64,000 bases of DNA from assembly GCA_047967505.1 (NCBI GenBank), contig CM106538.1. One strand, written 5' to 3'. Of this stretch, positions 1,910 through 54,526 are shown one piece after another. Below the pieces are notes generated by a model. The model was not told where the DNA came from. It saw only the letters and a program-made list of their open reading frames with translations, and made no database searches. The stretch comes from Dipteris shenzhenensis (Eukaryota). Numbering within the stretch: the first letter of the stretch is position 1; each line of letters starts with the position of its first letter. Position numbers and translations under genes: made by a program.

Positions 1910-2219
1910 AGAAGTTTTAGAATCTATTCGAGGGGAAAATCAACATCACCAACCTGATGTGTAGGTGGTGGAGGGGTTGTCTCTGAAATGCGAATAGTTG
2001 GCTAGATTCCACTGCTTAGACTAGACTACCTACGATCAAGAAGCTAAACTATGGAGCGTTTTTAAACATATTGCTTTAAACTCTTAACACCTTTGAAAAA
2101 AATACACCTTTAAAACTTGCATATAGCCATAGCTATTGGGGTGTGTGTGTGGGTAAAGCCATATGAAAACGATGGCCACCTTTCAAATTGTTGCTTTTCC
2201 TCATTAGACATCGTAGTAC

Positions 2220-3571
2220 TATTAACTAGAAAAGAATTCAATGCATGAGGCTAGATGCTAGGCATGGCAATGCTCGAGGGCCATGGAGGAAAAGGGAACA
2301 TGAGGGAAGAAGTGCTAACATAGGTGGGGAAAAAAAGATTAAGAGGGGTGGGAATGAAGAGGGGGACTATGGCACAAGGGGGAAGGAAGAGGGGGAAGAG
2401 GAGCATGTACATGATGGGAGGTGGAATATAGAGATAGAGACATCAAGGGAAGAGAGTCATGCCTTATTGGAAAGATGGGGAGGAAATCAAAGTACTAGCT
2501 AGGAGGCTTTACAAGAATGAGCGTGTTCCATCAAAGAATAGCCTCCTCCTTTTATAGCTAAGAGAGGGGGTCTCTCCCAATAAATGCATCCTCCCACATG
2601 CATGGTGTATGTGGAAGAGTGTCCCATTTGGGCTAGGCAGTTACACACTCTCAATTATGTGTGACAACCCTTTGCCTCATTTTTCCACATATATCAACCC
2701 CCATATCCCAAGTCTAATATACTCCCTTGGTCTCTTCCCAATTTTATAATACATTCAAACATCTAGGAGGACAAGTGGAGGGTTGGCACAAGGAATCTTG
2801 CCCCTCATCCTACTTTCCCATTATTTAACTTGCATTCTTGGACTTTCTACCACCCCCCCCTGTTGAGATATCGAGCTCCACTCGCGATATGCTAGGGTGA
2901 CTATTGTGCATTTATGTCACCGACTTGTTAGCTGGAGATGCGGTTGGTACACCGCCCACGATGGATGACAGCTATCCTTATCTACTCTAGTTTGTGGCTC
3001 AGTTAGTATGCCACCTTAGTTAGTTGAGTTTGGTTTGAGACCCACATATAGGGTTCTTCTATTTTCTTTGTACTAGAGTTCTTTTGGCTTTCACAACTAA
3101 GAAGAGGAAAACTGTTTTCAGCCTCCACCTTTGTGTGTATTCCCCCAATTGTTCATGTGAGAAAGCCGCAAGTAAGACTCCTTCCCTCTCTCCCACTATC
3201 TTCACGCCCCCCACATGGGCCTACCCTACATGGAGGGAATAATCCAATATAATATCCATCTCCAACTATTTTATATTACCTCTCCCATGGTCCTTGGGCC
3301 ATATCTAACTAAATGCAGGCGTGGGACCACCTAGGTGGAGGGGTGGTGCATGGAGGACCTATGCCACCTTATCATTTTATATTATTACTACCATGGATTA
3401 TGTACAACACACCTTATGGGTCCTCTTACATGGAAGGGTGGCACATGGTCATGCCCTACTACCACCTCAACCCTGGGCCTTATGCACACCATATTTTATT
3501 ATGCTATTGCCACACATACAAGCACACACACATATTTATGCCTTTTACTTTCGTCAAATTTATCCATAACA
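2220..3571 (-). repeat. 3' LTR of element A (contains a nested 344-bp insertion)
   Basis: Direct repeat of 10318-11303; minus strand begins TGTTATGGAT and ends CTAGTTAATA. Confidence 0.92.
2861..3204. mobile_element. Probable solo LTR of an unrelated family nested in the 3' LTR of element A
   Basis: Absent from the other two LTR-A copies; TGTTGAGATA...TATCTTCA termini; inserted in a C-run (ccccc / cgccc flanks). Confidence 0.75.
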
Positions 3572-3574
3572 GTT

Positions 3575-3582
3575 CCCCCCCC
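3575..3582 (-). promoter_or_regulatory. Polypurine tract of element A
   Basis: Minus strand GGGGGGGG-AAC immediately before the TG of the 3' LTR. Confidence 0.8.
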
Positions 3583-3649
3583 AATCAAGGAATGCATAGC
3601 ATTTCCATGCCTTGGACCATCACGCACAAAGAAGGGCTTGAGACAATGC

Positions 3650-4750
3650 TTGTTGATCACCTTCTTGCCATATGGCTCATGCAGTTCCTGAACTTGTACA
3701 GACCCATTGCTACATTCCTTGATGACTTTGTATGGACCAGTCCATAGTGGCAGAAACTTCTTATCCATTTGGTGGTCCAATCTGTGATCAAAGCCTAGCA
3801 TAACATCCCCCTCAACAAAGTGTCTTTCCCATCCCTTGCGAATTATAGCATCCAAGCAGGCCTTTTGTCGATTCTTTTGGATCTCTGTTTGATGTAGTGC
3901 AAGGCGTCGGGTTTCATCTAACTTCTCAAGTTGTACCAACCTAGCCTCTACATGTTCATCTTCTGTCCTCTATTCTCGTGCCAATCTCAAGGCCGGAATC
4001 TCTATCTCTAGTGGTAAAACTACCTCAGTACCATACACCAACTCAAAAAGAGTGTGTCATGTAGACATTTTATGAGTGATGTTGTAAGCCCACACAACTT
4101 CAGTGACCTTCTGATCCCACTGGCTCCTATTCCCTGTGGCCATTTTTCCCATTGATTTACAAAGGAGGCCAATGGTCCGCTCCGTTTGTCCCATGGATGC
4201 TGGATGATAGATGCTGGATTATAGATCCATGAGCAACTCCACTACTTCATTTAAGAATGGACTCCCATGGCCAAATACTATTTCCTTGGGTGTACCAAAC
4301 CTTGTGCAGATATGTTCAAATATGAAATTTGAAACTGCCTTACCATTTGCAACGAGGAGGGCATATCTTTGGCCCACTTAATGACATACTCAGTGGCTAC
4401 CAAAAGATACTTCTTTTTGCAGGCAGTCATGGGTAGGGGCACAACAAAATCTATTCCCCACTTCTGAAACGGATGGATGGACATCATTGGGTGATGTTGC
4501 CGAGGATGCAAATCCTTCCTACCAAAGAATTGGCATGGCTCACAAGTTTTGCAATACATAGTGACATCCTTGAACAAGGTCGGCCAATAGTACCCAGCAT
4601 GTAAAATCTTCTTAGCTGTATAGTCACCGGCATAGTGTCCTCCACAAAATCCATCATGATAATGGTTCAATACCTTAGGTACTTCATTTGCATCAATGGC
4701 CTATCTTAGTACCCCATCCAGGTCTTAATGGTATAACACCCCATCAAAGA
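3650..4750 (-). pseudogene. Gypsy integrase (HHCC, rve core, GPY/F motif), disrupted
   Basis: HYHDGFCGGHYAG...CKTCEPCQ, WGIDFV, WTGPYKV in ORFs 4278-4670 and 3499-3939; no chromodomain seen. Confidence 0.92.
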
Positions 4751-4899
4751 GAGTGTAGTGCCTACTATCTCTACGGATTTTCTTTCTCTCATAGCTAGTA
4801 CTTTCTGGAGGAAAGGAGAAAGCGGTCAAAAACTTGTAGATTCCACCATACCATAGATCCCCAACTTCTATGGCCACTACAAGGATTACATCGAGGCAC

Positions 4900-5300
4900 T
4901 CCTCTAAATCAATCAAAGCATTCTTCAAGTTGGAACAACCCCCTTTTACAATTTTGAAAGAAAAATCATATTCTTGTAAAACTGCCAACCATTTGGCCAA
5001 CCGGCCCATGGGATTTGGTGATTGAAGAACTTGCTTTGCAAGACCATTGCTACAGATTATATTGAAGGACAATCCAGCAACATAATGCTTAAATTTCTCA
5101 ATGTAGAATACCAAAGACAAAGCATGCTTGTCAGCCTCTGAGTAACGTCATTTAGTTTCGAGCAATTATCGAGAAGCAAATCGAATAGGATACATGAACC
5201 GATCCTCCCCTTGCTGGAGAAGAATACCTGCTAGAGTGTGCTCACCAAACCCAAGATTGATATAGAAAGTCTTTGACCAATCAGCATTGCATAGAATGGG
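4900..5300 (-). pseudogene. Native Gypsy RNase H domain, catalytically degenerate
   Basis: WSKTFYINLGFGEHTLAGILLQ...YPIRFASR...YSEADKHALSLVFYIEKFKHY...GRLAKWLAVLQEYDF; fold motifs kept but D/E/D positions read G/H/S. Confidence 0.85.
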
Positions 5301-6300
5301 TTCTGAAGCCAGAGCACTCTTGATTTGTACAAACCCATGATCACAATCCTCATCCCAAGAGAAATCAACTCCATCTTTTAATAGCATAGTCATGCGTCGC
5401 GTCAAAGCAGCATATTGATCAATGAAGCAGCGATAGTATCCTGCTAGATTGACAAATGAGCGTACTTGACATTTGGTTGTTCACGGGGAGAGCTTGAGGA
5501 TAGTTTCTACCTTCTCGGAGTCAAGCTTGATGCCCTCAGATGAGACAATATGTCCCAGTAACCTCCCTTGAGTGGCTCCAATGGTGCATTTATCAGGGTT
5601 AAGGCTACCATTCGCATCATTAACCTTTTGGAAGGCCAACCTAACCTTCATGACGTGCTCCTTACATGTCGAGATGATACAGAAATCATCTAAAAACACC
5701 TCCAAGAAAACCCCCAAATAAGGAGCAAACACCATTTGCATAAATCTTTGAAAGGTAGCAGAAGCATTGGTTAGGCCAAATGGCATTACTTTGAATGCAA
5801 ATGTCCCCCAAGGCGTGGCAAATGTGGTTTTAAGCACATCCTCCTCAACAATTCTGATTTGATAAAACTCGAAGTAACCATCACAGAAAGTATACATCTC
5901 ACGACTACTTACCTTCTCACGAATGAGGTCTTGAAAGGGAAGAGGATGATGGTCCCTCTTGGTGGCTACATTGAGTTTCTTATAGTCGATGCAAACCCGC
6001 AACTTCTTGTTTTTTTTTGTGTTGACTACCACTGGTGAAACCCATTTAGTATTGTGAAACGAAACAGTAAGCCCAGCTCCTACAAGTTTTTGCAACTCTG
6101 AGTGCAAAGCATCAGTCTGTAGGGGCCGTAATCTTCGATACTTCTCAGCCACAGGCTTCGCATCAGGCTTCAGCTCTATCTTGTTCTTTATGGTAGTCAC
6201 ATGGCAAAGGTGTCGGTAGCTAGTTGCGAAGAGGTCAGGGATATCTTTGAACATTTTTAGGAACTCATCTTTCTCACTTGGAGTGAGGTCTGGGGAAAGC
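5300..6300 (-). pseudogene. Gypsy reverse transcriptase, disrupted
   Basis: WVSPVV...RVCIDYKKLN, TTFATPWGTFAFKVMPFGLTNA, VFLDDF in ORF 5481-6371. Confidence 0.95.
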
Positions 6301-6529
6301 ATAGATTCAAGCTGTTGAGGACTATCTGTTACCTTTTCTATAGGTGGCAGGGTCGGAGACACCCCCATCATGTAAACTTTCTCCTCCGTCTGATTCTTCC
6401 ATTAATTCAAACACCGAGGATGAGAGAGTATCACTGTCTTGCTCCTCTTCTTCTTCTAGTTCAGTGGCACCTGGTTGCACCGGGATCTTCTCCTTAAAAG
6501 CACCAAAAGACATGTGTCATGTCTTCCAA

Positions 6530-6860
6530 TAGCTGACTGCATCACTCTTTCTCAACCATGGTCTCTCAAGTATGGCTGGGTAACTCCTGCCTGTATCTTC
6601 AATGTCCACTACATAGAAATTGACGGTAGTGGTCAACCCATTGATAGTGATGGGCAAATCCTCAATGACTCCTAGGGTGGCAAGTCGTCAACCATCTACT
6701 ACCTTGATTCGAGTGGAGGAATGCCTTGTGCATTTCAAATTCAATTTCTTCATGATTCAGGGCACCATGATATTACATGCAGCTCCCCCATCAACACACA
6801 CTTTTGACACGGCAATTATCTATAATGACATCTATTGTATGTGGGTGCCGATTAATTTCT
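6530..6860 (-). pseudogene. Gypsy aspartic protease, frameshifted
   Basis: Minus-strand VDGGAACNIM near 6765-6800, located between gag and RT. Confidence 0.75.
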
Positions 6861-7269
6861 TCAGAGATAGAAGAGACCTCTCATACCTTTCCCTTTTTCT
6901 TGCTCCTCCTTACTGAGAGCCCTTGCTGCAACTCACGTCTCACCTTAGGACTTAATGCTATTAGTTGAGGGAGCGTGATGCTCAAAGACCAATGAGCAAG
7001 GTCCTGAACGACCAAATAGTCCTCTTGCCCCGAGCCGATGGGAAAATCTAAGGCTGACCAGTTACTCCTGCAAGATCTTTTAGTCTTCTCTGTTGGTGGG
7101 TCTACCATCTCAGCATCTTAGGGCTCTGAGAAGGACACCTTCTTCCTAGGGTAGCCTGATCCACAGTTTTGAGAGGGGTCCGAGGTGGTATGACTTCTTT
7201 TCCCGAGGTTAAGGATCTCTACTTTAGAATCCTCCGTGCTTCATTCACTTAGAAGATCCACCCTTGGAA

Positions 7270-8189
7270 TATTGGGACATTCCATGCAATAATGACCCTT
7301 CTAGTGGCACTCGTAGCACACAACATTGGCACGTTCTCTTGGAGGGTGATTGGCTTGATTTCTAATGCCCACCATCTCAAGCCAAAGATCATTCAGGGCC
7401 TTAGCTAGGTCATTGACTCCAGGTTCTTTAGCAGGAGGCACTGGGGGAGTAGGAAGCAGGGGGGCTCATGGGCGAGGCTGGGAAAATCTTCGAGGTGGAG
7501 GTGAGGATATACTCCTTGTTGAGGGTAAGCATCTAAGGGAGAACCATACATTTGAGGTGGAGGCTGTGGATACATCCCTGATGAGGGGTGGGGGTCTGCC
7601 CTTGAGTTAGACCCCCCAGGTTGTTGTTGCAAGAATTGAGGGCATTGCGGAGGGACAATTGTCTTCTTTAAAGCAGGATCAGACTGAAATTTATCAAACT
7701 TTTGAGCAATCTCATGTGCTAGCACCATAGTTTCTAGATTCTCCCATTTAAGCTTGAGGCGAAATTCATCACTTGTTCCTGCTACAAGGTAGCCCAGCAC
7801 ATATTGAGTCATTCCAGCTCAAATCTGGCATTGTCCTCCTGCGTGGCAATTAAACGGTCCAAGAGAACAGCCGCTCGATCCACATATCGACACGCCGTCT
7901 CACCTTCTGACTGCTTCAAGTTTGCCACCTGTAAGTACACATTCTTTGGCTCCTCTTCTTTGTCGAAATACTCAATCATCGCTGTTGTTAACCTTAGCCA
8001 GTTTTGGTGAACGTTGTCAGCATGCTTCTCATACCACACTTGAGCCAAACCCTCTAGAAATGTGGGAAGAACCAACAGCCATCTATCTTCAGTAAGAAAG
8101 TTGAGAGAAACACAACAGCGCTTGAAGGCCACAAGATACTCATTTGGATTTTCTTCAACCCATCCACAGAACACAAGAATGTCAACCAT
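7270..8189 (-). pseudogene. Gypsy gag (capsid-like region plus CCHC knuckle), frameshifted
   Basis: ENPNEYLVAF...LEGLAQVWY...LKQSEGET in ORF 7809-8189; VCYECH*KGHYCMECP at about 7275-7325. Confidence 0.88.
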
Positions 8190-8539
8190 GCTTGAAAAAT
8201 GGAAAAGAGAGAGTCAAAATGAGGCTTATCTATTGGCAAACAATAAAAAGAGGTAGCTTGAACTGAAAATCAGGTGAAGATACATCCACAAAGCACACAT
8301 AGGCAGGGTAGGGTGTGACTGGTGTATTGTGAAATACTACACGACGAGAAGAATCTTCAGCATAGAATAGCTCATATACAATCTTAAAAGGACCAACCAT
8401 CATGATATTGCATCCATCTTTACAAGCGAGTATTAGAGACATGGCACTGCATGAGGTTGTTCACCAAGGAAAACAAGAATGCCATGACAAATGTCAACAG
8501 TTGGAGAGCTTGCACATCACCTTCAGCTTCTTCCAGTTC

Positions 8540-9500
8540 TTGTAATCACCATGCTATTTCTTCAAGGGGTGTGTGCTCTGGCATCCTTCTTTTGAGCAAT
8601 GTCCTTGAGGACCTTTCTGATAATCTTCCAAAGTCGGTAAACTCGTACCAAATATGCCCAACACTTAGTTTCATGATGACCACAACGTTTGCATTCCTTA
8701 CAAATGATCACCCTTCTTCATGGCTTGCGGCTTTGTTAGGGCGGTGCTTCCACTCGCTTCATGCATGATTGAAGTACAAGCTTCACATGTGAAGAAATCA
8801 GCAACTATATTTTGAGCTCAAGGGATATGTTGAATTTTTGCCTCTTCAAGTTGATGTCGTGAAACCAAGCCTTCGCTCCACACCTTCCACCTTCCACTAA
8901 CTTGTTCACACACGAGTTGAGAATCTCCTTGCACCTCAAGTTGCTTGATGCGATGTCCTTGTGCCTTTTTTAGCCCAAAAATGAGTGCCAAGTACTTAGC
9001 TTGGTTGCAAGTCCTTGCTAGTGCAGAGTTGCTATAACAATACACCTCACCCCCTGGTGAAGTGAGCTTCACACCCACAGCAGCAGCCTTGGCCGAAGGT
9101 TTGTATGCACCATCAAATTGGAGGAGCCAAGATATAAGAATTAATAAGCAGATGCGCCAAATCTCCCCCTAAGCTTAGGGAGCATCCCACCCTTCGAAGA
9201 ATGTCACCCTTTTAATTACCTCCAATGCAGCAAGTAGCTCGATCATCGCACAATGAGTAGAATTGAAATCAAAGTCCTCTCAGTGTATCACTAGTTCTTC
9301 ACCTTGAATCATTCACAATGTATCATCCCACCCATCGTCTTCTTGAACAATGCATTGTACAATCAATTGTTGAAGATCAACATAAAGATCAAGAAAGAGA
9401 TCTCGCCAATTGGTAGCTGTAATGAGCAGAGGATCAAGCACCGAATCCTTGAACTCGTCGAGAAGTGACATAAATATCCACCCTCCTCGTGTGGTGTGCA
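8540..9500 (-). pseudogene. Accessory ORF upstream of gag: unknown N-terminal region, archaeal-type RNase H (aRH), CCHC knuckle
   Basis: WLLQFDGA (~9108-9129), CNQA(K/E)YLALIFGL, LEVQGDSQLV, NIVADF, then CKECKRCGHHETKC (~8660-8700); same order in the copy at 24760-25870. Confidence 0.85.
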
Positions 9501-10292
9501 TCCAAGGAGTAAACTTGAAAAAGTTCAGAATCTACAATCTAGTATCAGATATGAATAGAGCACATGAAATGAAGTACTTTTGCTTTTTACAACAAGAGGA
9601 AACTCCCTACGGTTAGAGAGTTACAGTTCACAAGATTTCACCATATAAGCAATATCATTACACTTTTATCACTTCCTATTTGCTGGCCCTTGGTAAGTCT
9701 TCCTTTTGTGAATGAGAAGGTCTTGGGTTCAATTCCCACTCCTTCATAAAAAGAGAGGAGAGGAGAGGAGAAGAGGATAGGGGCGCGAGATCTTTTGCAG
9801 GAGCCCAAAAAGTCGGTCCGCGACACACAGGTGTGCCAGAAGACGCAGGAACCCAGGAAAATAGTTGCGATTTGCCCACGATGTGCAAATGCACCAGAAT
9901 ACGCAGGAATTCAAAAAACAGTCGTGATTCACGATCTGTCTACGATGCGTAGATGCACTAGCTATGACTAGGGGACATGCGGGTGTTGCAGATGCACAGG
10001 AGCGATTTTGCAAGTGTGATCAACCAAAAGACGCATGGTACCACACAGAAGGCACGTAGGAACCCACATGCACAGGAACCGTGGGCTGAAGGTGTAGGAA
10101 TCCAAAAGATGCGCAGGAACCACAGGCTAGAGGCATAGAAACTGAGAAGTTCTGCAACCATAGAGTCAGAGAATTGCGAGCAGAAGATACGTGGATTGGA
10201 GGCGCAGAAGCAAAGAACCGCACACGAAAGGTACTACAGAACTACACCCAGCCGTAGGAGTAACGAATTTTACACCACTTGCCGTGGAGATT

Positions 10293-10313
10293 TCGATCCC
10301 AGTAGCCACACCA
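10293..10313 (-). promoter_or_regulatory. Primer-binding site, complementary to a tRNA-His-like 3' end
   Basis: Minus strand TGGTGTGGCTACTGGGATCGA 4 nt after the 5' LTR; plus strand ATCCCAGTAGCCACACCA resembles the recalled plant tRNA-His(GUG) 3' end ATCCCAGCAGCCACACCA. Confidence 0.75.
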
Positions 10314-10317
10314 GTTC

Positions 10318-11303
10318 TATTAACTAGAAAAGAATTCAATGCATGAGGCTAGACGCTAGGCATGGCGACGCTCGAGGCCATGGAGGAAAAGGGAACTTGA
10401 TGGAAGAAGCGCTAACATATAGGTGGGGAAAAAAAATTTGAGGGGTGGGAATGAAGAGGGGGACTATGGTACAAGGGGAAAGAAAGAGGGGGAAGAGGAG
10501 CATGTACATGATGGGAGGTGCAATGTAGAGATGGAGACATCAAGGGAAGAGAGTCATGCTTTATTGGAAAGATGGGGGGGAAATCAAAGTACTAGCTAGG
10601 AGGCTTTACAAGAATGAGCATGTTCCATCAAGGAATAGCCCCCTCCTTTTATAGCCAAGAGAGGGGATCTCTCCCAATAAATGCATCCTCCCACATGTAT
10701 GGTGTGTGTGGAAGAGTGTCCCATGTGGGCTAGGCGGTTACGTACTCTCAATTGTGTACGACAACCCTTTGCCTTATTTTTCCACATACATCAACCCCCA
10801 TATCCTAAGTCTAAGATATTCCCTTGGTCTCTTCCCAATTTTATAATACGTTCAAACATCTAAGAGGACAAGTAGAGGGTTGGCACAAGGAATCTTGCCA
10901 CCTCATCCTACTTTCCCATTATTTAACTTGCATTCTTGGACTTTCTACACCCATCCCACATGGGCCTATCCCACATGGAGGGAATAATCCAATATAATAC
11001 CTATTTTATATTACTTCTCCCATGGTCCTTGGGCCATATCTCACTAAATGCAGGCGTGGGACCACCTAGGTGGAGGGGTGGTACATGGAGGACCTATGCC
11101 ACCTTATCATTTTATATTATTGCTACCATGGATTATGTTCAACACACCTTATGGGTCCTCTTACATGGAAGGGTGGCACATGGTCATGCCCTGCCACCTT
11201 AACCCTGGGCCTTATGCACACCATATTTTATTATACTATTGCCACACATACAAGCACACACACATATTTATGCCTTTTACTTTGGTCAAATCTATCCATA
11301 ACA
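10318..11303 (-). repeat. 5' LTR of element A
   Basis: Direct repeat of 2220-3571 minus the nested insert; followed by the PBS; TATA-like CTATAAAAGG on the minus strand near 10645-10654. Confidence 0.92.
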
Positions 11304-11682
11304 ATACACATACACACACACTTTCATTAGATAATTTAGAGCTTTCTAATCCCAACTTCACATGTTGTGATAGGCCTTGGAAATAAATTGCTACAACTTT
11401 AAATGATCCACCTTGAGCTAATTATGAGATCCAAGCATCCATAAAATTATCAAACATTAGAACTTGGACAAAGATATCAAATATTAAATTGATCTCTTTG
11501 TCTCTCTTGAATGCACACACACACACACATTGAGAGAGAAAAGAGAGTGAATTAAAGCATGCTTTTGGGCCTTCTATTATATGCTAGCATAATGCACAGT
11601 GCCCAGAAGTTTAGTTGATGCACGCCTATTAGTGCATGCATAAAATTATCAAACATTAGAAGTTGGACAAATATATTAAATA

Positions 11683-11748
<66 letters not shown>

Positions 11749-12256
11749 TTAGAAGCTTTAGAATCTATTCAGGGAAAAAATCAACATCACCAACCTGATG
11801 TGTAGGTGGTGGAGGGGTTGTCTCTGCAATGCACATAGTTGGTTGGATTCCACCGACTGGACTGGACTACCTACAATCAAGAAGCCGAACTATGGACCGC
11901 CGTTTTTAAACATATTGCTTTAAACCCTTTATACCTTTGAAAAAAGTATGACTTGAAAACTTGCATGTAGCCATAGCTATTCGTGTGTGTGAGTGGGTAA
12001 AGCCGTATGTCGAAAACAACAACCAACTTTCAAATTTTTGCTTTTACTCATTAGACATCGGAGTACACACACACGCTTTCATTGAATAATTTAGAGCTTT
12101 CTAATCCCAACTTCTCATTCTATGCATTATGCCAACATAGAATGGATTTTTAAAATACATCCAAGAGATAATTTGAAAGCTTTCTAAAAATTTACTATAT
12201 CAGCTTTCAACACTCAACTTTTGTTTGTCAGATCTAAGGTCCCCTACCCGTGAAGA

Positions 12257-12321
<65 letters not shown>

Positions 12322-12659
12322 CTAGTACCCATAAAGAAAAAGAACTTGAGCTTGAGAGTCTTTTTTCTCAAATTATTATTAGCTAATCCCATAAAAGTGA
12401 AAAGTTTCCCTATAAATTCAAAATGTTATGCATACATAAAAGAAATATACGCTCTGCCTAATCTTAATTCTATTATTTCCTTGGCCAATACAAACCAAAA
12501 ACTTAAGTTTCCTCTCAAGAGACTATTTATACTATTAAATCTGAGAATTTCTAGTCAAAGAACCTTGTAGAGAAGAGATAAGAGCTGGTACCCATAAAAG
12601 TGCAAATAAAATTTCTATCTCTAAAACAAAACCAAAAATATATAGATATTAATAAATGT

Positions 12660-12725
<66 letters not shown>

Positions 12726-13247
12726 CTCTCTCTAGAAGCTTTAGAATCTATTCAAGGGGGAAATCAGCATCACCAACCTGATGTGTAGGTGGTGGAGGGG
12801 TTGCCTCTGCAATGCGAATAGTTGGCTGGATTCCACCGATTGGACTGGACTACCTATAATCAAGAAGCTGAACCATGGACAATTTTTAAACATATTGCTT
12901 TAAACTCTTTACACCTTTGAAAAAAGTACACCTTTAAAACTTGCATGTAGCCATAGCTATTGGTGTGTGTGTGTGTGGGTAAAGCCATACGAAAACGATG
13001 ACCACCTTTCAAATTGTTGCTTTTCCTCATTAGACATCATAGCACACACACACATGCTTTCATCGGTTAATTTAGAGATTTCTAATCCCAACTTCACATG
13101 TTGTAATAGCCCTTGGAAATAAATTGCTGCAACTTTAAATGATCCACCTTGAGCTAATTATGAAATCCATGCATCCATAAAATTATCAAACATTAGAAAT
13201 TGTACAAAGATATTAAATATTAAATTGATCTCTTTGTCTCTCTTGAA

Positions 13248-14203: not shown

Positions 14204-15204
14204 TGTTATGGATAAATTTGACCAAAGTAAAAGGCATAAATATGTGTGTGTGCTTGTATGTGTGGCAATAGTATAATAAAATATGGTGTGCATAAGTCCC
14301 AGGGTTGAGGTGGCAGGGCATGACCATGTGCCACCATTCCATGTAAGAGGACCCATAAGGTGTATTGTACATAATCCATGGTAGTAATAATATAAAATGA
14401 TAAGGTGGCATGGGTGCTCCATGCACCACCCCTCCACCTAGGCAGTCCCATGCCTGCATTTAGTGAGATATGGCCCCAAGACCATGGGAGAAGTAATATA
14501 AAATAGGTGGAGCTTGATATTATATTGGATTATTCCCTCCATGTAGGATAGGCCCATGTGGGGGGGGGGGGTGTAGAAAGTCCAAGAATGCAAGTTAAAT
14601 AATGGGAAAGTAGGATGAGGTGGCAAGATTCCTTGTGCCAACCCTCCACTTGTCCTCCTAGAAGTTTGAAAGTATTATAAAATTGGAAAGAGACTAAGGG
14701 AGTATCTTAGACTTGGGATATGGGGGTTGATGTATGTGGAAAAATAAGGCAAAGGGTTGTCGCACACAATTGAGAGTGCATAACCGCCTAGCCCACATGG
14801 GACACTCTTCCAAACACACCATGCATGTGGGAGGATGCATTTATTGGGAGAGACCCGCGCTCTTGGCTATAAAAGGAGGAAGCTATTCCTTGATGGAACA
14901 CACTCATTCTTGTAAAGCCACCTAGTTAGTTCTTTGATTTCCCCCCCCATCTTTCCAATAAAGCATGACTCTCTTCGCTTGATATCTCCATCTCTATATT
15001 CCACCTCCTATCATGTACATGCTCCTCTTCCCCCTCTTCCTTCCCCCTTGTGCCATAGTCCCCCTCTTCATTCCCACCCCTCTTAATCTTTTTTTCCCCA
15101 CCTATATTAACGCTTGTTCTCTCACGTTCCCTTTTCCTCCATGGCCCTAGTTATCGTCATGCATAGCATCTAGCCTCATGCATTGAATTCTTTTCTAGTT
15201 AATT
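14204..15204 (+). mobile_element. Solo LTR of family A inserted in a (TG)n tract
   Basis: Reverse complement of 10318-11303 over its full length; (TG)n on both sides giving a TGTGT or GTGT duplication; no PBS or PPT adjacent. Confidence 0.92.
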
Positions 15205-17934
15205 GTGTGTGTGTGTGTGTGTGGCTCTCTATCTCTCTTGACTTGCCTACATGAAACAACATTGTTTTCTATTTGGCCTCTCTATCTTATCAGGCTCCCT
15301 CCGCCCACACTCTACTGCCCTCTTCTTGCCTTTCCTTATATTTTTGTGGGTATGAAATGCATGTGATTACCTTTCATACACTTGGAGCCATTGTGTTCTT
15401 TATCCATGCCGACGAACTTTACACAGATCATAACAATGAACAGTAGTTTGTTTTCTGTTTTTATGGGCAGGAAGGATGTGAATTGTGGGAAGTTCATGCT
15501 GACTACGTCTGCAGCCCAAAATGCCAAAATTCTGCAAGAGACGATGTCAATCTTGTCGCAAAACCGTGAATTGGGAGCTCGATCCATCCTCTCCCTCCTC
15601 GATGTCATTGTATCCTCTCATTCCTCTCACGTTTCCCTTAGAGATGACGATAATCCAACAGCATAGACGGCCCTCACATTCACGTACCTTCAATGTCTTT
15701 GATCTGCTTGCCAACCTCTGATTTTGACCCCTCACTTCCTCCATTGCCACTGCACTTGCTGCTTTTGCTTCTTATGCACTCCTTCATGCTTTCTTCTTCC
15801 AATCTGCATCATCCATGGCCCTGCCTCTTGGTTGACACCCTCCTCCACCTCCCCCCACTTCTCTATTATTGCCACCGACCTATAGAAAAGATGGATGGAT
15901 GACCACAATTTGAAAAGGTAGAACGTAGAGGAAACATAGTGTATTCCAAAATTTTTTAGGTGCCACGATTTGTCATTCCAACGATTCCTTGCATTGAAGT
16001 TTTTTTTCCTTGCATGCAAAGCTAAGGCCATCCTTGCATCTCACCATTGGCTCGTCTCCTCTTCCCTTGGAAATGCCCATAATGGTAGCTTTCTGGCTCA
16101 ATTGTCTCGCATTCTGTGTCATTTGTTTTTGTTACAATATTTCTACAGCTCCCAGGCATTCCGCGCTGTCTCGCCCCTCTCAAGTGAAATGGATCACGTC
16201 GTGGGTCTGCAGTACAGCTGGGAAAATCTCATTTGGGTTCAATGGATTGTCATTTGTATCGAATCCTGCGATTCAGATGGCGATCATATATGAGAGCGCA
16301 CGTCATAAACGTCTCTCTATATGAGTCGAGTTGTGCATCCTATTAAATGTTGCGCAACAAATGCACTGCCTGCAAATTCTAAAAATGATTCTCTTGTCTT
16401 AAAGGACGCAAGTTGTGTTCGCTTTCTTCTCTTGCAAGGTCTCATTGAAGTTTTTTTCCTTGCATTGTAGTTTTTTTGTGCGGTTTCCAGACGCTGGTGA
16501 ATGATACTTAGCTACTCAGGTGAAGATAGTTCCCCTTTTGACATATCTCACCTCGCTTCTTGGTGATTTCATATTTGCATCTTCCCGATCGTCATTCCTT
16601 TTATAGCTCCCTACGGGATGATTCAAGCCAGCTCTAGGCTAATATTGTGGAGCAGCCTGAATGTGCGTCCTTCATGAGCGCTTTCTTTCACCCCCCGTGA
16701 GGTACTAATCCTAAACCGCAACCTACAAAGCTTCAAAGCTTGCGAACGCATTGCAACAGAGGAAAGCTAGCAGAGAAATACCTGGAACTCTCTTTGCAAG
16801 GTTGCCTTGTGGGTCGAGTCGCCTTCTCACTTGCTCCTTTCTTGCTACACCTTTTGCAACTTGCGCTTCCTTGTTCACAGCTTCCGCTCCTTTGCTCATA
16901 GCCTGAGCTTCTCTCAAGTTCCAATCGTTTCTTGCTTGAGTAGCCTCCATCTGCTTAGCCTCCATCCCTTCTTGCATGTAATGCTTCATTCTTTCTTTTT
17001 TCTGTGAGTTGAGAGGAAAGCGCGTTTTCGAGAGCGTGTTTTGAAGCACCAAGTGGCATAGAGAGATTGTGTTTTGAAGCACCACGTGGCATATCCATAC
17101 AAATGCCACGCGGAACCTCTCCTTAAAGTATAGTATAGAAGTATAGATAGATGTGTGTGTATGTATGTATATGTTTTTCCCAAATTTTCTTAAAATTCCT
17201 CGAAGGTAACTCTTAGATTTATAAATGAAACTTTAAATTTTATTGTTTGAAACCTAACTTTTTCAATGTAGAGAGTTTTCCACGTATCTTTAAAGCTTCA
17301 GGCAAGAGGGCAAGCTGTTTAAACTTTGGGTGAAGTGGGGGGAACATTTGTTTGGATGGCACAGGAGACGGCACAGCCACGACATGTGGGTGGTAAAAAT
17401 ACGGCCTAAAGAACAGCATTTTGCCATCTGAAGCTCGTAGCCTCGCACAAAATCTACTGCGAGTTCTCTTTTGCTGACGGAAGAACACGACAATGGAAGA
17501 CGACGAAGACTGACCATGAATCACGGTTAGCAGCTCGAGGAAAGAACTACAAAGAAGAGTGTGAGGCATCGCTCTGCCAGTAGCTATCTCGAGGAGGAGG
17601 AGAAGAAGAGTGTGAGGCATCGCTCTGTTAGTACTTAGCTAGCTATCTCGCGCCAGGAGAAGACAAGCTTGCGACACAAGGAGGAGGAGAAGAACCAGCG
17701 ACAGCAGGAGCAAGAAGAAGAAGAAGAAGCAGCAGCAACGGAGGAGGAAAGAGCACTTCGAAGGCGGGTTGAGGTATTTCAGAAAGAACATCAGCTACGT
17801 CGAAGAAGAAGCAAATAGCATGAAAAGATGAAGAGAGGTTGTGGTGCGATGCAGAGACGAGTCGAGATATTTCAGAAAGAAGATCGATCAGCTGCGGTGT
17901 GATGCAGAGACGAAGCACCAGGCCGACTACAACG

Positions 17935-20446
17935 ATGATGACGAAGAAGAAGCACCTCCTCTCAGCTCTCAGCTTCTGCGTTCTCATCCTGCTCCATCTC
18001 TTTGCAGCAGCAGCAGCTGCTTCGTCCTCGTTCGACATCGATGAAGCCACAATCGCAGATATCCATGCGGCCTTCGCATCAGGAACACTCACCTCCACTC
18101 GCCTCGTCCACCTCTACCTCGCCCGCATCGCCGCCCTCAATCCCCGTCTTCACGCTGTCATCGAAGTCAACCCCGACGCTCTGCTTCTCGCTCGTAAGGC
18201 GGATCGCGAGAGGAAGAAAGCGGGCCGGCGCGGTCGCCGGGGTCGATCATCCCACCAGCTCGCTGCACTTCATGGCATTCCCGTGCTTTTGAAGGACAAC
18301 ATCGCCACTCTCGATAAGCTCAACACCACTGCTGGCTCCTTCGCTCTGCTTGGCTCCCAGGTGCCACGGGATGCAGCTGTGGTTGCCAGGCTACGCAGAG
18401 CTGGAGCCATCATCTTGGGAAAGGCGAATCTCAGTGAATGGGCCAATTTTCGCTCCACCAATTCTTCCAACGGGTGGAGCGCCCGTGGAGGACAGACCAA
18501 GGTATCCAACAATCCAAGTTCCTCTACACTCTCATCGTCTAGTTGATCGATTGCATTTCACATGTGTGATTTCTCTCCTCGCGCTTTGCTAGAACCCTTA
18601 TGTTCTCAGCGCCGATCCTTGCGGTTCCAGCTCTGGCTCAGCTGTGGGTGTGGCAGCAAATCTCGCGTCTGTGTCTCTAGGGACTGAAACCGACGGATCG
18701 ATCATTTGTCCGGCGTCTCGAAATGCCGTCGTTGGTGTCAAGCCCACCGTTGGTCTTACCAGTAGATCAGGGGTCGTTCCGGTTTCTCACCATCAGGACA
18801 CCGTGGGGTAGGAATTTTTCAACGCCCAATGCTTCAATTTCCATTCCAGTCCATGCTCTTATGATTGGAACGCTTGTTCCAGCCCTTTGTGCAGAACCGT
18901 GACGGATGCTGTCAAGGTTCTGGATGCAATTGTAGGCTTTGATCGATTGGACGCTGCTACAGCCACTGCTTCCCATTTCATCCCGAAAGGAGGATACACG
19001 CAGTTTTTAAAAGTGCATGGGCTTCGTGGGAAGCGGCTTGGAATTGTGCGGCATCCATTTTTTTACCTCGAAACGGATCTCAGCGAGCAACCCGCTTTCG
19101 ACGAGCTTCTCCTCCTCATGAAGTACCCCTCCATCTTCTGTGCATGCTCTGTTGATCATTTTCTTTGCGATTATCATGTAGTTAATTGTCAATACACTAT
19201 CCTACTTTGGTGCCTCACAGGAAGAAGGGAGCCCAGATTGTTGATAATCTGACTATTGCGACAGTGGATGAGATAACAGCTGGGCAGTTTGAGAAGACAG
19301 TTCTTATCACCGATTTCAAGCAAGACCTCCACGAGTACTTGGAGCAGTTAATAGTGTCGCCAGTAAGGACATTAGCAGATGTGATTGCATTTGACAACAA
19401 GCATTCTAAGGAGGTTAGATTCTCGACCCCCGGCACGGACACGTCTCATATTTTTGAACGCACCAAAGCCTCACCATGCAATTGTTGTTTTAGAGCAGCG
19501 CATCTGCAAGCAGTGTTTGCTCTCTGTCTGGCTTCTTAATTACTCCTGTTTAGTGGGCGTTCTGCTAGGAAGCCAATCTGCAGCAACTGGATCCATATGG
19601 TGTCCGAAGGATTTTCTTCTTAAGCTTCATATCCCTCTATCGATCATTGAATTTAGCTTTAAGTATCCATCTTTGCTTTCTTCGCTCGGTTCTTGGATAT
19701 ATTATAATCAAATATCGGACCTTTCGCCCTTCTTGATTTGCAAATCGAATCATAGAGGGTTTCCTCGTGGAAGGGGTTTAGAAGATTGCCCGCACAGTTT
19801 GTTTCTAAGGGGTAGAGTCATCTATCTTATCCAAGTGAGTGGTTCAAGCATTGTTCCCTTTTCTATTTCTTCTTCCTTCCAAGTTCCAGATGAGAAACAC
19901 TATTGTCCCTTCGTGACATCTTCTAAACTCTGCTTATATCCATAGACCCTTTGATTTTTGTTGTGGTACCAGAACGAATCAAGTACTATACTCTTGTAAG
20001 CAGTTTGCAACATACATTTCTTTCAATGGGCGTCTCTACTTTATTCAAGAAATCTTATGGGTTTTTGCTGGTTTGTGGTCGGCCAGGAGGAGATTTCTCG
20101 GTTCGGGCAGGAAATCTTCTATGAATCTGAGAAGACAAAGGGGTTCGGTTCGAAGGTTTACAGGGAAGCCGTGGAGGGGGATGGTGAACTAACGAAGAAG
20201 GGAATCGACAGGCTAATGAAAGAGAGGAAGCTGGATGCGATAGCGGCACCATCGTACACATCGATAACGTCAGTGGCGGCCATAGCTGGATATCCTGGAA
20301 TCTCTGTGCCGGCAGGGTACACTGAAGGGGTGCCATTTGGCATATGCTTTGTGGGTGAGCGTGGAAGTGAGGGCAGACTTATCGAAATAGCCTACTCGTT
20401 AGAGCAAGCCACGCTCATTCGCAAGCCACCCCTTTACTTCACGTAA
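17935..20446 (+). CDS. Amidase-signature family amidase, plant At4g34880-like; exons 17935-18501, 18593-18807, 18883-19122, 19221-19413, 20087-20446 (524 aa; alternative in-frame ATG at 17902)
   Basis: LHGIPVLLKDN (catalytic Lys), GKANLSEW, PCGSSSGS, GTETDGSI (Ser-cisSer-Lys triad), GYPGISVPAG...PFGICF; all four introns GT-AG with consistent phases and an open frame; hydrophobic N-terminal signal-like segment. Confidence 0.93.
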
Positions 20447-24156: not shown

Positions 24157-24757
24157 TGTGACATGAAGTTGGGGGTAATGAAACTTCACGCACCTCTTAG
24201 CTTCCTGCTCTTTCCAATCTTAATAATAGGGACCCTTATCACTTGCAAAGAGAGAGGAAGAAAATATTTTCATGCAAAGAAAACCACAACATGTCTTTCT
24301 CTTTGCTTCCTTTAGAGAAGAATGAATATGGTAACATCCCGAGTGATGTGTAGTCCAGCATCGGCAGAAGAAAAGGATTCGCAGAGGCCATTATCTCACC
24401 AAGCCGGGCCGGCACCAAAGAGAAGAGTGATACGTTGTTGTAAGAAGATCTTTTGGCTCCACATGACATGAACTGATATATATCTAGGGGCTTGAAGGAG
24501 CTGATTTGGCTGGATGGGTAAATTCCGGGGAAACATGGCACCTCCTTCATAGAAGCCTCTAGAAATGGCTCAAAATCATTCTACAAATTGCTAGAAAACA
24601 CAGAGGTCTATAACTTCTACCAAAAGACTGATATCAGAAATTATAGTACATTATAAGGATGTGCCTTGAAGTGAGCTTTGTACTGATATAAGTTTTGTTG
24701 AAAACAGATAACTGGTTGAAGAGATATGGACAGTTTACTGAAAGGGGGTAGAAACTC
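24157..24757 (-). repeat. 3' portion of LTR family B, inverted
   Basis: Reverse complement of about 29300-29897, ending ...CATGTCACA. Confidence 0.88.
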
Positions 24758-26467
24758 ATTGTTTAAGGAGACGACGGGTGGAATGATACACTGTGGTTGA
24801 TTCAAGGTGAAGAACTGGTGATACACTGGGAGGACTTCGATTTCACTTCTACTCATTGTGCAGTGATCGAGCTACTTGCTGCATCGGAGGTAATTAAAAG
24901 GGCGACATTCTTCAAAGGATGGGATGTTCCCCAAGCTTGGGGGGAGATTTGGCGCATCTGCTTATTAATTCCAGTGGATAAGCTTGTCGTAAATGATTTC
25001 TTCTCAATCTCGCTACAAAGGTTTCTAGGGCTTGGCTATGGTTGGTAATGTTTCGACCAAGGAATCCCTTTGCACCTAATCAACCCTTTGTGTCTCATTT
25101 TGAGCTTCAAGTTGTAATTCTTTTTTGTCTAAAGATAAACTATCAACAAAGGATTGCAATTTTATTTGGTACTGAACATCTTGCTCAAGTGTTGAATTCT
25201 CCCCACCCTCTCCTTCTACCTATCTTGGATTATCGAGAAACTTGGGATGTTTGGATTTTAGTCTTGGTGTGATGACATCTTGGCTACTTCAATTTGACGG
25301 AGCATACAAACCTCTGACCAAGGCTACTGGTGTGGGTGTGAAGCTCATTTCACCGGGGGGTGAGGTGTATTGTTATGGCGAGTCTACACCTGCAAGTACT
25401 TGCAACTAAGCTGAGTACTTGGCACTCATTTTTGGGCTACAAAAGGCACAAGAACATCGCATCAAGCAACTTGAGGTGCAAGGAGATTCTCAATTCGTGT
25501 GTGAACAAGTTAGTGGAAGATGGAAGGTGCGGAGCGAAGGCTTGGTTCCATGACATCAACAAGCATTGGAACTATGCCAACAATTTGAAGAGGTAAAAAT
25601 TCAGCATATCCCTTGAGCTCAAAATATAGTTGCTGATTTCTTGGCATGTGAAGCTTGTACTTCAATCACACATGACGCGAGTGGAAGCACCACCCCAACA
25701 AAGCTGCAAGCCACGAAGGAGGGTGATCCTTTGTAAGGAATGCAAAGGTTATGGTCATCACGAAACTAAGTGTTGGGCATATTTGATACGAGTTTACCGA
25801 CTGCGAAAGATCATCAGAAAGGTCCTCACGGACATTGCTCAAAAGAAGGATGCCAGACCGTACACCCCTTGAAGAAATAGCATGGCAAGAGTTACTCATG
25901 GATCGCATGGGTATAGATCATCACACTTCTAGCATCTATTATCCAGCATCCATGGGTCAAACTGAGTAGACCGATGGCCTCTTTTGTAAAACCATGGGAA
26001 AAATGGCTACAGGGAATAGAAGCCAGTGGGATCAGAAGGTCACAGAAGCCGTATGGGCTTACAACATCACTCATAAAATGCCTACAGGTCACACTCCTTT
26101 TGAGTTGGTGTACGGTACTAAGGCCGTTTTACCACTAGAGATAGAGATTCCAGCTTTGAGATTGGCACAAGAACAAAAGATGATAGAAGATGAACATGTA
26201 AAGGCTCGATTGGTGCAACTTGAGAAGCTAGATGAAACCCAACGCCTTGCCCTACATCAAATAGAGATTCAAAAGAATCGACAAAAGGCCCGCTTGGATG
26301 CTAAGATTCGCAAGGGATGGGAAAGACACTTTGCTGAGGGGGATGTTATGCTATGCTTTAATAACAAATTGGACCACCAAATGGATAAGAAGTTCCTTCC
26401 ATTGTGGACCAGTCCATACAAAGTCATCAAGGAACATAGCAATGGGTCTGTACAAGTTCGAGAGCCT
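24757..26467 (+). mobile_element. Internally deleted relative of element A: accessory aRH/CCHC ORF joined directly to the integrase C-terminal half
   Basis: 24760-25885 matches reverse complement of ~8545-9355 (plus an extra ~300 bp); 25890-26465 matches reverse complement of ~3685-4240; gag, PR, RT and RH absent. Confidence 0.88.
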
Positions 26468-31214: not shown

Positions 31215-34200
31215 TTTTTTTTTTTCCCAAGAAAGAGACTTCTATTAAGTAAGAGAAAAAACCCGCGAGAGCAAGCACAAAGCGGAATACATCATGAAAT
31301 CATGAGGATAAATAAAAAACTCCCTCAGAGTGAGGTGGAAAACGACCAAGGCTGAGGCTGAAAGTGCCACCTCAACCCTGTAGTAGTCTCAGAGAAGAAA
31401 GGAGAATCCTTCCATTCCCTGAAGAAAGAAGCCCTCCTAGCTGAGGCTGCACGGGATTCTCCCTGCATACCCGTCCATACGGCCATCAAAGTATATACGG
31501 TGTCTATCCAAATACTAGCCAATGTGTGCAAGGGATGAACTTGAGTACCCTCCAAAGCCTCTGTGCATCTGGCTCTCCAAATATGCCAAGATGCTATGCT
31601 CGCTAGAATCTCCCAAGAAGTATCCACAGAGGCATGTACAGCTGTAAAAGGAAGGTGCGGTACCACATCCAACGAACAAGACTCAGTTCGATGACGTCGA
31701 ACCAAAATGGCCCGAGAGGAGTCAAATCTCTCATAGAATACCTGAGGCCCTATAAGAGAAAGCCAAGCCACTGAGCCCCATATCATAAAAAATGGGAAGT
31801 GGGCAAAGTGACTGAAAATCCTGGCTACCCCCATCCAAATCATCCTCGCCTATCTGCAATCCCATAAGCAATGCTGAATAGTCTCTGAAGCAGAGAGGCA
31901 TCGAGGGCAAGTAGGGTCGGCTACGCGAACCTAGACCTCCAAAGGTTCACTGCAATCCCACCATGGATAGAAAGCCAAAAGAAGATAGTGATCTTTCTAT
32001 TCATATGGGATTTCGAGAGTCTCCTCCAAAAGCACCTCTGCAGATCTGCAGTGATATCAAATGTCTCCCAATGAGGAACTCTGGAAGGTCTCCAACCTCT
32101 ACTACTGAGCTGATATCTCGTGGCATTACTGACCGTGTAACGAAAGAAGGGGATGCTCTTCTCTCGATGCCTTGCGTCAATCCACTCCCACTCTCCGAGG
32201 TCCCACTGCAAATACCTGATGGGAACTCCCCCATAGAGCCAGAGCCTCCAAGACCCAGTGGAGAGTAGCCCGGGGTCTGGGTCTAGGAACCACTCTGAAA
32301 TCCTAGACACTAAAAACTAAACACCCTCCTGTGCATCTCTAAAGGCCAATGCAGAACACCGCCTCTCGTAAAAGTACCTGCCCAAGTGGAGGAAGTGAGT
32401 GGCATATCATCTGTGTCTTCCCAAACCTCTGAAAGGGTTGCCTCAATCTGCAAGATCCTCCCTGCACTCCCTCTGAGATGTCCTGTCAACCTTGATTTGG
32501 TCTCCTCTGAAAGCTTGCGGAAAGCTTTCCAAGACCCCATAGATGATGCAGGTCCCCTCTCCCACCTGGACCACTGCATGTAGAGTGAGACACCCAGTGG
32601 TCTACCATGATCATCTAAAATACTGTCATTCCACATGATGGGTTGCCTATCAATCTCTTTCCGAGAGGAAGGAGGAATCCTCCGAAGAGTGCTTCTGAAA
32701 CTGGCCCAAGCTTTCAGAATGGCAACCATGAGAGGGGAAGAAGGTGATTTGAGGTGTGCTGTGGTGAAGATCTACCTAACACTGCTCATCCAGTCTCCTC
32801 CTGAAGAAGGTGTGCACCTCTGTATGCTGCTAATATGTCCTTCCACGGTTCCTGCCTTGGCATACGTCCCCGCACCACCATCTTGCAAAGTAAAGCTCTG
32901 CACTGTAAATCTAGATCAATAATATTGAGACCCCTTTCCTGTGTAGGGAGGATGAGGGTCTCCCAAGCCACCCTGGCTAAGGCATCTGTTGTGCCATCAA
33001 GCCCACTCCAGAGAAAATTTCTGATCGGTCTTCTTAGCTGAATGATGTAGTCCCTAGAATGGCACCAGCATGAACAAACAAACCAGGCCATGGCCAAGAG
33101 GACCTGGTTGACCACCACAACTCTAGAGGCAAGATCCAGCTTGGCTGGGCTCCAAAAAAGAAGCTTCTTCCTGATGCTCTCCAAAACGGGAGCAAACTGT
33201 TGCGTGGTAGAAATATCCTGGCAGCCCAAATACCTGATAGGCTCACCCCTCTGAACCCAAGTGAATCCTATGTCAAGCCCCCAAACTAGAGTGTCCTCAT
33301 CACTGATCCAAAAGCCATTGGATTTATGCCAATTTATCTGCGCCCTTGCCGCCAAGCAAAATAAATCCAATGCTGTCTTGAAAGAAGTGAGTGTCTGTGG
33401 AGTGGCATCCAAGTAAACTGCTGTGTCATCTGCCAACTCACTGTCAAGTAGCTCCTCTTCCCTTCTGATGGGAAGTCTCAGCCCAAAGATGTCAGCTTGA
33501 GATCTAACATAGATACTCATAGCTTTGGCCACGAACAAAAAACGGAAAGGAGCAAGGGGGCATCCCTGACGGACTGATCTCGAAATCTGAAATCTCTCAC
33601 CCCTTACCCCACCAATAAGTACCTGGCTGTGGGCTGATCTGTACAAAGAGGAAACACCTTTGATCCAAGCACTAGTAAAGCCAAAGCGTAGAAGGGTGCC
33701 CTCCAAAAAACCCCAATCTACTCTGTCATAAGCTTTCTCAAAATCCAAAAGTAGAATGGCAAGATTCTGGCCACTCTGCATGGCCCACTCTGAAGCTTCC
33801 CAGAAAGAGAAAATGTTATCAAAAGCTTCTGCCATGCACAAATCCCGTCTGGGTCATGAATAAGATCAGGGAGAAGGTCTGCAATCGGAGGCTGATAGCC
33901 TTTGGCCAGAATCTTGTAACAAGTCCCCAGAATTATGATAGGCCTCCACTGGGACACTAAATTTCTGCAACCTCCTTTTGGGATAAGGTGGATGAGACCC
34001 TCTGTAAGCGACCCAGGCATCTCGCCAGAGTCCCAAATGGCCTGCAGGGCTGAAGTAATATAGTCTCCAATCATATCCCAAAATGCAATGAAAAAAGATG
34101 GGGTGAGGCCATCCGAACCTGGGCACTTGCCCTTGTGAAGGGCTGAAAGTGCAGTCCTGTGTGCTGGTGAAAGGTGCATCGAGTAGAACATGCATATCCG

Positions 34201-53763: not shown

Positions 53764-54526
53764 TGTCGACTCTTTCAGACAGTTTTGGCAATTTGTCCAA
53801 GGGTAACAAGCTGGATGGACCAAACTATGCCTTGTGGTCATTCATGCTTAAGAACATCTTGGTTGGTAAGGGCTTTTGGGATATTGTTAGTGGGGATGAG
53901 GTGAGGTCAGCAAGCTCATCTACATCCAGCACAGCTTCTTCGGGTCAGACTTAGGCAGACAACAGACTGCTACAGCCCCTCCTGCTAGTCCCATAGCATC
54001 GACGGAGGAGCAAAAGAAGTTAGACCGCCGTAGTGCCCAAGCGATGTTTTTTATCGCCACAAATGTGAAGAGGCACATTATGACGACTATCAAGTCATCC
54101 AAGGATGCAAAGGCAGCATGGGAAAGATTGGCAAACATGTATCATGCTAAGAATGAGGCAAGGGCCATTGCCTTGACAAATCAGCTCAAGGATCTCGAGA
54201 TGCAGGAAGGCCAGGCCATCACTAATCATATTGCCAAGATCACTGATCTACGTGATCAGCTTGCAAGTATTGATGAGGAAATAGAAGACAAAAAGCTCAT
54301 CTCTATTACTCTCAATAGCTTAGCACCCTCATATGGCACATTCGTCACTTCATTGACCATTGTTCTCAGGGCAGCCCCACTCTCGTTTGATGAGTTAGTT
54401 GGGCTTTTGTTGCAGGAAGAGGAGAGATGCTCAAATTTTGCCAAAGCCTCTCATCAGGGTGAGCAAGCACTTGCCATGGGTGGAAAGGGCAAATTTCAGA
54501 GAAAGTTTGAGCCAAAACACAGCCAT
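53764..54526 (+). pseudogene. Copia gag (N-terminal and capsid regions), premature stop, split by a LINE
   Basis: KLDGPNYALWS...KGFWDIVSG, AKAAWERL, LNSLAPSY, LLQEE. Confidence 0.9.

Follow-up and report, generated by a model that had tools for sequence, protein, structure and literature searches.

The described systems closest to the locus reported here are Tat elements, which Ustyantsev et al. (2015, PMC4408406) portray as carrying an archaeal-type RNase H (aRNH) together with a native one (gRNH) whose DEDD motif is degenerate. The same dual pattern was later described for the oomycete elements Chronos and Archon (Ustyantsev et al. 2017, PMC5348765). Biryukov & Ustyantsev (2023, PMC10508981) distinguish a structure #4, in which the archaeal-type RNase H (aRH) has an ORF upstream of gag, and they report this structure from Tat B of four mosses and from Tat C of Selaginella tamariscina. 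They describe the native RNase H (RH) as degraded in all aRH-bearing Tat structures, at whichever position the aRH lies, and consider the mode of action of an aRH outside pol to be unclear. Structure #4 was named 'pre-capsid' by Prokopeva et al. (2026, PMC13468544), who report all structural variants in lycophytes.

The element that we describe here occupies approximately positions 2215-11303, on the minus strand, of the window (the whole 64-kb stretch of DNA that was analysed, from Dipteris shenzhenensis). We read it, with a probability of roughly 0.88, as an old and dead copy of a Tat-lineage Ty3/gypsy element of the pre-capsid type, in which the loss of the native RH is lineage-wide and older than the insertion. 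Like structure #4 of PMC10508981, it has a separate ORF for the aRH, placed after the 5' LTR and before gag, a native RH with a degenerate DEDD tetrad right after the reverse transcriptase (RT), and a land-plant host. Compared with that description it shows no difference in kind; the window copy is dead. Native RH degradation beside an aRH, in this exact architecture, is already known from PMC10508981 and PMC4408406, and the preliminary description of this DNA, which had seen in it a Tat-type element with two RNases H, agrees with both papers. The nearest named relatives of the element, among the matches listed, are fern Tat-like polyproteins with an aRH, which is in line with Tat C being reported to fall between Tat B of mosses and Tat D of ferns. 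With the angiosperm Tat elements (Ogre, Tat4-1 and others; PMC4408406), it shares a captured aRH and a native RH without its first three carboxylates, but in those elements the aRH comes after the native RH inside pol, whereas in the window it lies upstream of gag. In angiosperm Tat the final Asp of the native domain is reported as conserved in the same paper; in the window it is an Asn, and this fourth Asp is missing in 43 of 68 aRH-bearing relatives.

Ty3 itself (4ol8, 7q5b) has a homologous RT-RNase H of the same fold, but it keeps the catalytic D-E-D-D and has a single RNase H, neither of which holds for the window element. Retroviruses are said, following Malik & Eickbush in 2001, to combine a connection (tether) domain with an acquired RNase H. 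The native RH of the window resembles such a tether in being an RNase H-like fold without catalytic residues beside the RT, with structural matches to the RTs of MLV and HIV-1. The two systems are nevertheless of independent origin; the acquired RNase H of the window is of the archaeal (Arg) type and not of the fungi/metazoa (His) type found in retroviruses, and whereas the active RNase H of retroviruses follows the tether in the same polyprotein, in the window it is the integrase zinc domain that follows, with the aRH upstream of gag.

Anatomy of the element and its surroundings

The domains recognised by Pfam on the minus strand come in the order aRH, gag, RT, RH and integrase, with the RT-RH-integrase order of Ty3/gypsy, within an LTR-bounded element of ~9 kb. 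Its 5' LTR (10313..11303, minus strand), the first letters of which are TGTTATGG, and its 3' LTR (2215..3571, minus strand) form a pair of direct repeats that blastn aligns at 93.0% over 644 bp and 91.8% over 377 bp. This identity of ~92-93% implies ~4% change per copy since insertion. About 340 bases of the 3' LTR, at 2855-3195, are absent from the 5' LTR. At the LTR ends that we chose for the element, no target-site duplication was recognisable. Both flanks carry a ~1-kb repeat (1206-2219, 11297-12066 and 12027-13045; 87-91% identical) with long (GT)n and (CT)n runs, and it looks as if the element had been inserted between units of a tandem repeat.

Between the LTRs, all features described here lie on the minus strand. 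The gag (capsid) region extends over 7405..8213, with a match to Retrotrans_gag (PF03732, E 1.3e-6) at 7809-8213, and after it a CCHC knuckle of CX2CX4HX4C spacing was found by eye at 7318-7277. A protease-like stretch (VDGGAACNIM ... LERPWL), at 6553..6795, was likewise placed by eye, from the frame-2 translation and the relatives P0026 and P0004. The RT (5481..6401; RVT_1, E 1.7e-19) could be aligned to that of Ty3, and downstream of the native RH lies the integrase zinc-binding domain (4278..4700; Integrase_H2C2, E 6.7e-13). The decayed integrase core and C-terminal region, at 3572..4299, consists of frame-shifted, stop-ridden translations without a Pfam match, and is followed by a polypurine run (3582-3572), the G-run GGGGGGGGAAC, immediately before the start of the 3' LTR. 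Pfam searches of stop-masked frames yielded zero matches in the protease region, the integrase core and the 5' UTR.

The pol frame is interrupted by six in-frame stops between the RT and the integrase zinc domain, and by a frameshift within the integrase. The stop at 5483-5481 occurs in this copy alone: two of its letters differ in all overlapping public contigs. The copy is dead, and its native RH and its aRH are both broken. A single partial read in one RNA run covers the conserved RT motif. In three public DNA runs we found 423, 555 and 419 contig pieces on 4700-9200 with at least 80% likeness, mostly below 95%, and these hundreds of diverged pieces indicate that the element family is multicopy. 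Contig depth over the conserved RT core at 5757-5907 is raised ~10- to 20-fold in all three of these runs, with loose ends at 5739-5810; this rise is probably due to other gypsy families that match the conserved motif and is not a feature of the element.

A further LTR-like piece belonging to the family is present at 14204-15206. In plus-strand orientation, its part 14601-15206 is 91.6-92.4% identical to both LTRs, and 14204-14500 matches 3272-3571 at 94%, inverted. The piece may represent a solo LTR, a rearranged one or the margin of a further copy. As its one recognisable host gene, the window contains an amidase-signature exon at 17824-18546 on the plus strand (Amidase, E 9.1e-26), with a protein of the lycophyte Diphasiastrum complanatum as its best named match (71%). 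The region from 31000 to 64000 is crowded with other retroelements, among them LINE-like RVT_1 (32786-33853 and 58186-59529), endonuclease (34582-35397 and 56786-57349) and zf-RVT (42779-43450) domains, and Copia-type RVT_2 (40719-41441), gag (53900-55255) and integrase (61637-62497) domains.

Catalytic sites and fold of the native RNase H

The native Ty3/gypsy RH domain (4887..5411, minus strand) is matched by RT_RNaseH_2 (E 2.2e-10, 5166-5480) and RT_RNaseH (E 1.8e-8, 4725-5147), and has in-frame stops at 5168-5166 and 5150-5148. None of the four positions of its D-E-D-D tetrad is acidic. Site 1 is a Gly (GGG, 5252-5250) within the motif LGFG (5255-5244), site 2 a His (CAT, 5126-5124) within DKH (5132-5124), site 3 a Ser (AGC, 5051-5049) within CSN (5054-5046), and site 4 an Asn (AAT, 4922-4920) within KNALID, opposite the Asp of ADAxSR. 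The flanking motifs YPIRFASR (5192-5169), EKFKHY (5099-5082), GRLAKW (5006-4989) and LQEYDF (4979-4962) are all found. The preliminary description had quoted the first three motifs with their codons and had considered the surrounding fold motifs to be kept, both of which we can confirm on the minus strand; its claim that three carboxylates are lost holds for sites 1-3 but overlooked the fourth. It had also stated that each of these sites is at least two base changes away from an Asp or Glu codon. This is correct with respect to the expected residue (Asp to GGG, Glu to CAT, Asp to AGC), but not with respect to any acidic codon, as a single base separates GGG from GAG, and CAT from GAT. The AAT of site 4 is also a single base step from an acidic codon.

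Over 420 residues, the RT-RH region aligns to the RT/RNase H of Ty3 (phmmer against the Protein Data Bank: 4ol8, E 6.8e-45; 7q5b), with the Gly paired with the first catalytic Asp and the His with the Glu that precedes LLG. At site 3, pairwise HMMER introduces a compensated one-residue gap that brings the Asn, and not the Ser, opposite the catalytic Asp, while in a 177-row MAFFT alignment, made up of the window and 176 relatives, the register is ungapped and CSN corresponds to TDH. The gapped register was set aside, the 177-row alignment backing the ungapped one. The third site is marked as a catalytic Asp by the difference between 4ol8, which has Asn there, and 7q5b, which has Asp. We take the catalytic residues of Ty3 to be D358, E401, D426 and D469, which fit the chain numbering with a two-residue offset and the Asn-Asp difference between the two structures. 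The register had originally been drawn by eye, with a shifted alignment recognised as its risk, and it proves to be correct, with sites 1 and 2 placed by phmmer to Ty3 and site 3 by the 177-row MAFFT alignment.

We modelled the residues of 4887-5411 with AlphaFold (X at the two stops, 40-row alignment). The model has a pLDDT of 86.1 and its topology, beta1-3, alphaA, beta4, alphaB/D and beta5, is that of the RNase H order; site 1 falls in strand 49-55, site 2 in helix 92-106 and site 3 right after strand 115-120, and the helix with site 4 is modelled at low confidence. The top Foldseek matches of this model are the RT-RNase H of CaMV (1.7e-10) and of Ty3 (1.6e-8, TM 0.65), followed by the RT of MLV and then by HIV-1 RT chains. 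This likeness, together with the non-acidic sites, means that the fold is kept and that the active site is gone. The native RH is thus a homologue of the Ty3-type RNase H that has retained its fold and lost its catalytic carboxylates, and judging from its residues, a domain with Gly, His, Ser and Asn at the four metal-binding sites is predicted to be incapable of hydrolysing RNA/DNA hybrids.

The archaeal-type RNase H and a second family copy

The aRH ORF (8698..9168, minus strand) is located between the 5' LTR (10313-11303) and gag (7405-8213). It is matched by RVT_3 (PF13456, E 1.6e-13) at 8818-9168, and aligns to the Halobacterium RNase HI 4e19 (phmmer, E 6.4e-10) and to the RNase H domain of Rv2228c. 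Of 84 relatives, 63 have D-E-D-R-D as their aRH core (per site: D 78, E 78, D 82, R 75, D 75). In the element described above (copy 1) it reads D-K-D-stop-D, with a Lys (8997-8995) at the catalytic Glu and a stop (8820-8818) at the conserved Arg. The start of gag lies ~485 bases downstream of the terminal TAA of the aRH (8700-8698), in a different frame. A contig of one public run bridges 8257-8907 at ~85% likeness.

The family has another copy in the window, with an internal deletion, at 24757..26459 on the plus strand (blastn 90.7% over 215 bp, 87.5% over 609 bp and 88.9% over 532 bp). In this copy 2, the 5' UTR/aRH region (90.7% and 87.5%) is joined straight to the 3' part of the integrase (88.9%), and gag, protease, RT and native RH are missing. 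Its aRH, 72.9% identical in protein sequence to that of copy 1, matches the whole RVT_3 profile (E 1.4e-25), keeps the catalytic Glu and ends at the same TAA (25734-25736). Since both copies share the location of the aRH and the sequences on either side of it, the aRH is integral to the family and not a private insertion. As both copies are decayed, we infer rather than observe that the aRH ORF was separate from gag and pol in the ancestor. Both copies also have a stop at the conserved Arg (8820-8818, minus strand, and the matching codon in 25263-25733, plus strand), where 75 of the 84 relatives have R; this common stop may have arisen in each copy by decay or have come from their ancestor. 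In contigs of two public runs (X1, X2), position 7048 is joined to 8382 with 1333 bases skipped and the same 10 letters between. These contigs lack most of gag, which shows that a gag-deleted derivative of the family exists elsewhere.

In the +1 frame, a further short frame overlaps the 3' end of the aRH in both copies (8804-8562, minus strand; 25630-25872, plus strand). It includes a basic stretch and the exact CX2CX4HX4C spacing, with the knuckle at 8702-8661 in copy 1, and it runs uninterrupted through 80 codons in copy 2 but contains two stops in copy 1; no Pfam zinc knuckle matched this mini-ORF at E<=1. The frame is known from two related dead copies only, and it is a rather speculative idea, drawn from these sequences, that active members might make an aRH-zinc-knuckle frameshift fusion or a small knuckle protein acting as partner of the aRH. 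If true, an aRH-knuckle product would explain how an aRH encoded outside pol reaches the genomic RNA in the particle.

Age of the loss and alternative readings

Searching 1.84 billion representatives with the 175-residue native RH (HMMER) returned five fragments, independent of one another and taken as family-level relatives, that are 58-77% identical to it (P0366, P0376, P0389, P0447 and P0464). All five are short singletons on ~600-bp metagenome contigs and, at this level of identity, perhaps belong to sister subfamilies. Site 1, Gly in the window, is R in the one fragment that covers it; site 2 is His in the window and in all three covering fragments, only P0366 being well aligned there; site 3, Ser in the window, is N in three of four and S in the other; and site 4 is Asn in the window and in all three covering fragments, within an identical NLKNALIDL. 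Pairwise and multiple alignments thus give no acidic residue in 11 site readings. The window itself holds only one RT-RH copy, no other having been found within its 64 kb, and a scan of metagenome loci queried with its RH ORF gave one distant locus (L001, 28% identity) that was not used.

Of the best 240 database matches to the RT-RH region, the top ones of which are only 40-53% identical and hence not copies of the family, 212 had an RH stretch and 176 could be aligned (28 and 36 dropped). The 68 relatives whose protein also includes an aRH-like stretch retain the first Asp, the Glu and the second Asp in 0/68 cases each, and the last Asp in 25/68. Those without such a stretch, 108 in number, comprise 48 with an intact DEDD, 54 in which it is fully or almost fully degenerate and 6 in which it is partial. 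An RT tree of the window and these database relatives (FastTree, 159 rows, 18 of the 176 relatives being left out for want of a usable RT stretch) places the window on a long branch (0.62) within a clade of 41 rows (SH-like 95). This clade is made up of 28 degenerate rows with aRH, 12 other degenerate rows and the window, and contains no DEDD-intact row. Of 1004 variable positions in the public contigs, the 40 best-supported ones at which every copy departs from the window include none in the interval 4835-5465, which gives indirect support. At ~4% change per site, the estimated odds of losing the carboxylates by decay after insertion are ~5e-4 for three and ~4e-5 for all four. The fragments, the aRH-bearing relatives, the RT clade and these odds together indicate that the loss long predates the insertion. 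The sequence comparisons therefore support the view that the missing carboxylates are a property of the lineage, probably fixed long before this copy inserted, and not the product of pseudogene decay. That the inactivation is older than the insertion had been proposed from the window sequence, and the proposal is now borne out by the non-acidic fragment sites, by the absence of the first three carboxylates throughout the aRH-bearing relatives and by the nesting of the window RT among degenerate RHs only.

Decay confined to this copy, in which the catalytic codons of an RH otherwise intact in the family would have mutated after insertion, is in keeping with the six stops and the integrase frameshift, with LTRs that are only 92-93% identical, and with a Gly at site 1 and a Ser at site 3 where some fragments have R and N. 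It conflicts with the His at site 2 and the Asn at site 4 that window and fragments have in common, and with the 0/11 acidic fragment readings; moreover, sites 1-3 would each require two base changes against a per-site change of ~4%, with the odds of ~5e-4 given above, and the same three carboxylates are missing from 68/68 aRH-bearing relatives. We regard copy-specific decay as largely refuted, with hardly any chance of being correct. An equally slim chance is left to an error of alignment, by which an alternative active site, for example one using the Asp at 5132-5130, would have been missed and the native RH would still be active. The pairwise HMMER gap does make the register at site 3 non-unique, and an Asp does stand two residues upstream of site 2, but 174 of the 176 relatives, with intact and with degenerate active sites alike, have E or D at that position, which makes it a separate conserved position and not the catalytic Glu. 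In addition, the HMMER alignment to Ty3, the multiple alignment and the modelled secondary structure are three agreeing registers, and the two candidates for site 3, Ser and Asn, are both non-acidic.

The role of the aRH is a separate matter. It might be a passenger or relic, derived for example from a plant LINE, a type of element in which this domain is also found, with host RNase H or other elements compensating in trans, and we consider this improbable, if slightly less so than the two readings just discussed. Its ORF is a separate one outside pol, a location from which its working is called unclear in PMC10508981; both window copies have a stop at the conserved Arg, and LINEs with related domains occur in the same window. 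Against a passenger stand the same place and flanks of the aRH in two copies that are ~12% diverged and in the bridging public contig, as well as copy 2, where the whole RVT_3 profile is still matched at E 1.4e-25 and the catalytic Glu is kept. The presence of an aRH is, furthermore, paired with a degenerate native RH in 68/68 proteins, and the best aRH matches, among the matches listed, are Tat-type polyproteins.

On the reading that we favour, an ancestor of the element may have captured a cellular archaeal-type RNase H, whereupon the redundant native RH would have been freed from catalytic constraint. The dead domain would have survived as a structural connection, or 'tether', between RT and integrase, and in active members the RNase H activity for reverse transcription would be supplied in trans by the separately encoded aRH protein. 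This scheme of capture, tether and aRH in trans is taken from the published model for Tat, for the oomycete elements Chronos and Archon, and for retroviruses. Within it, a dependence of the element on the aRH, the two forming one system, appears to be a reasonable inference.

With its two RNase H genes both broken, the window copy cannot address how a separate aRH serves reverse transcription. It contributes one more dead example, in a land plant, of a convergent theme that recurs in retroviruses, Tat and oomycete elements, in which an element acquires a cellular RNase H and its native domain is then reduced to a connection without catalysis.
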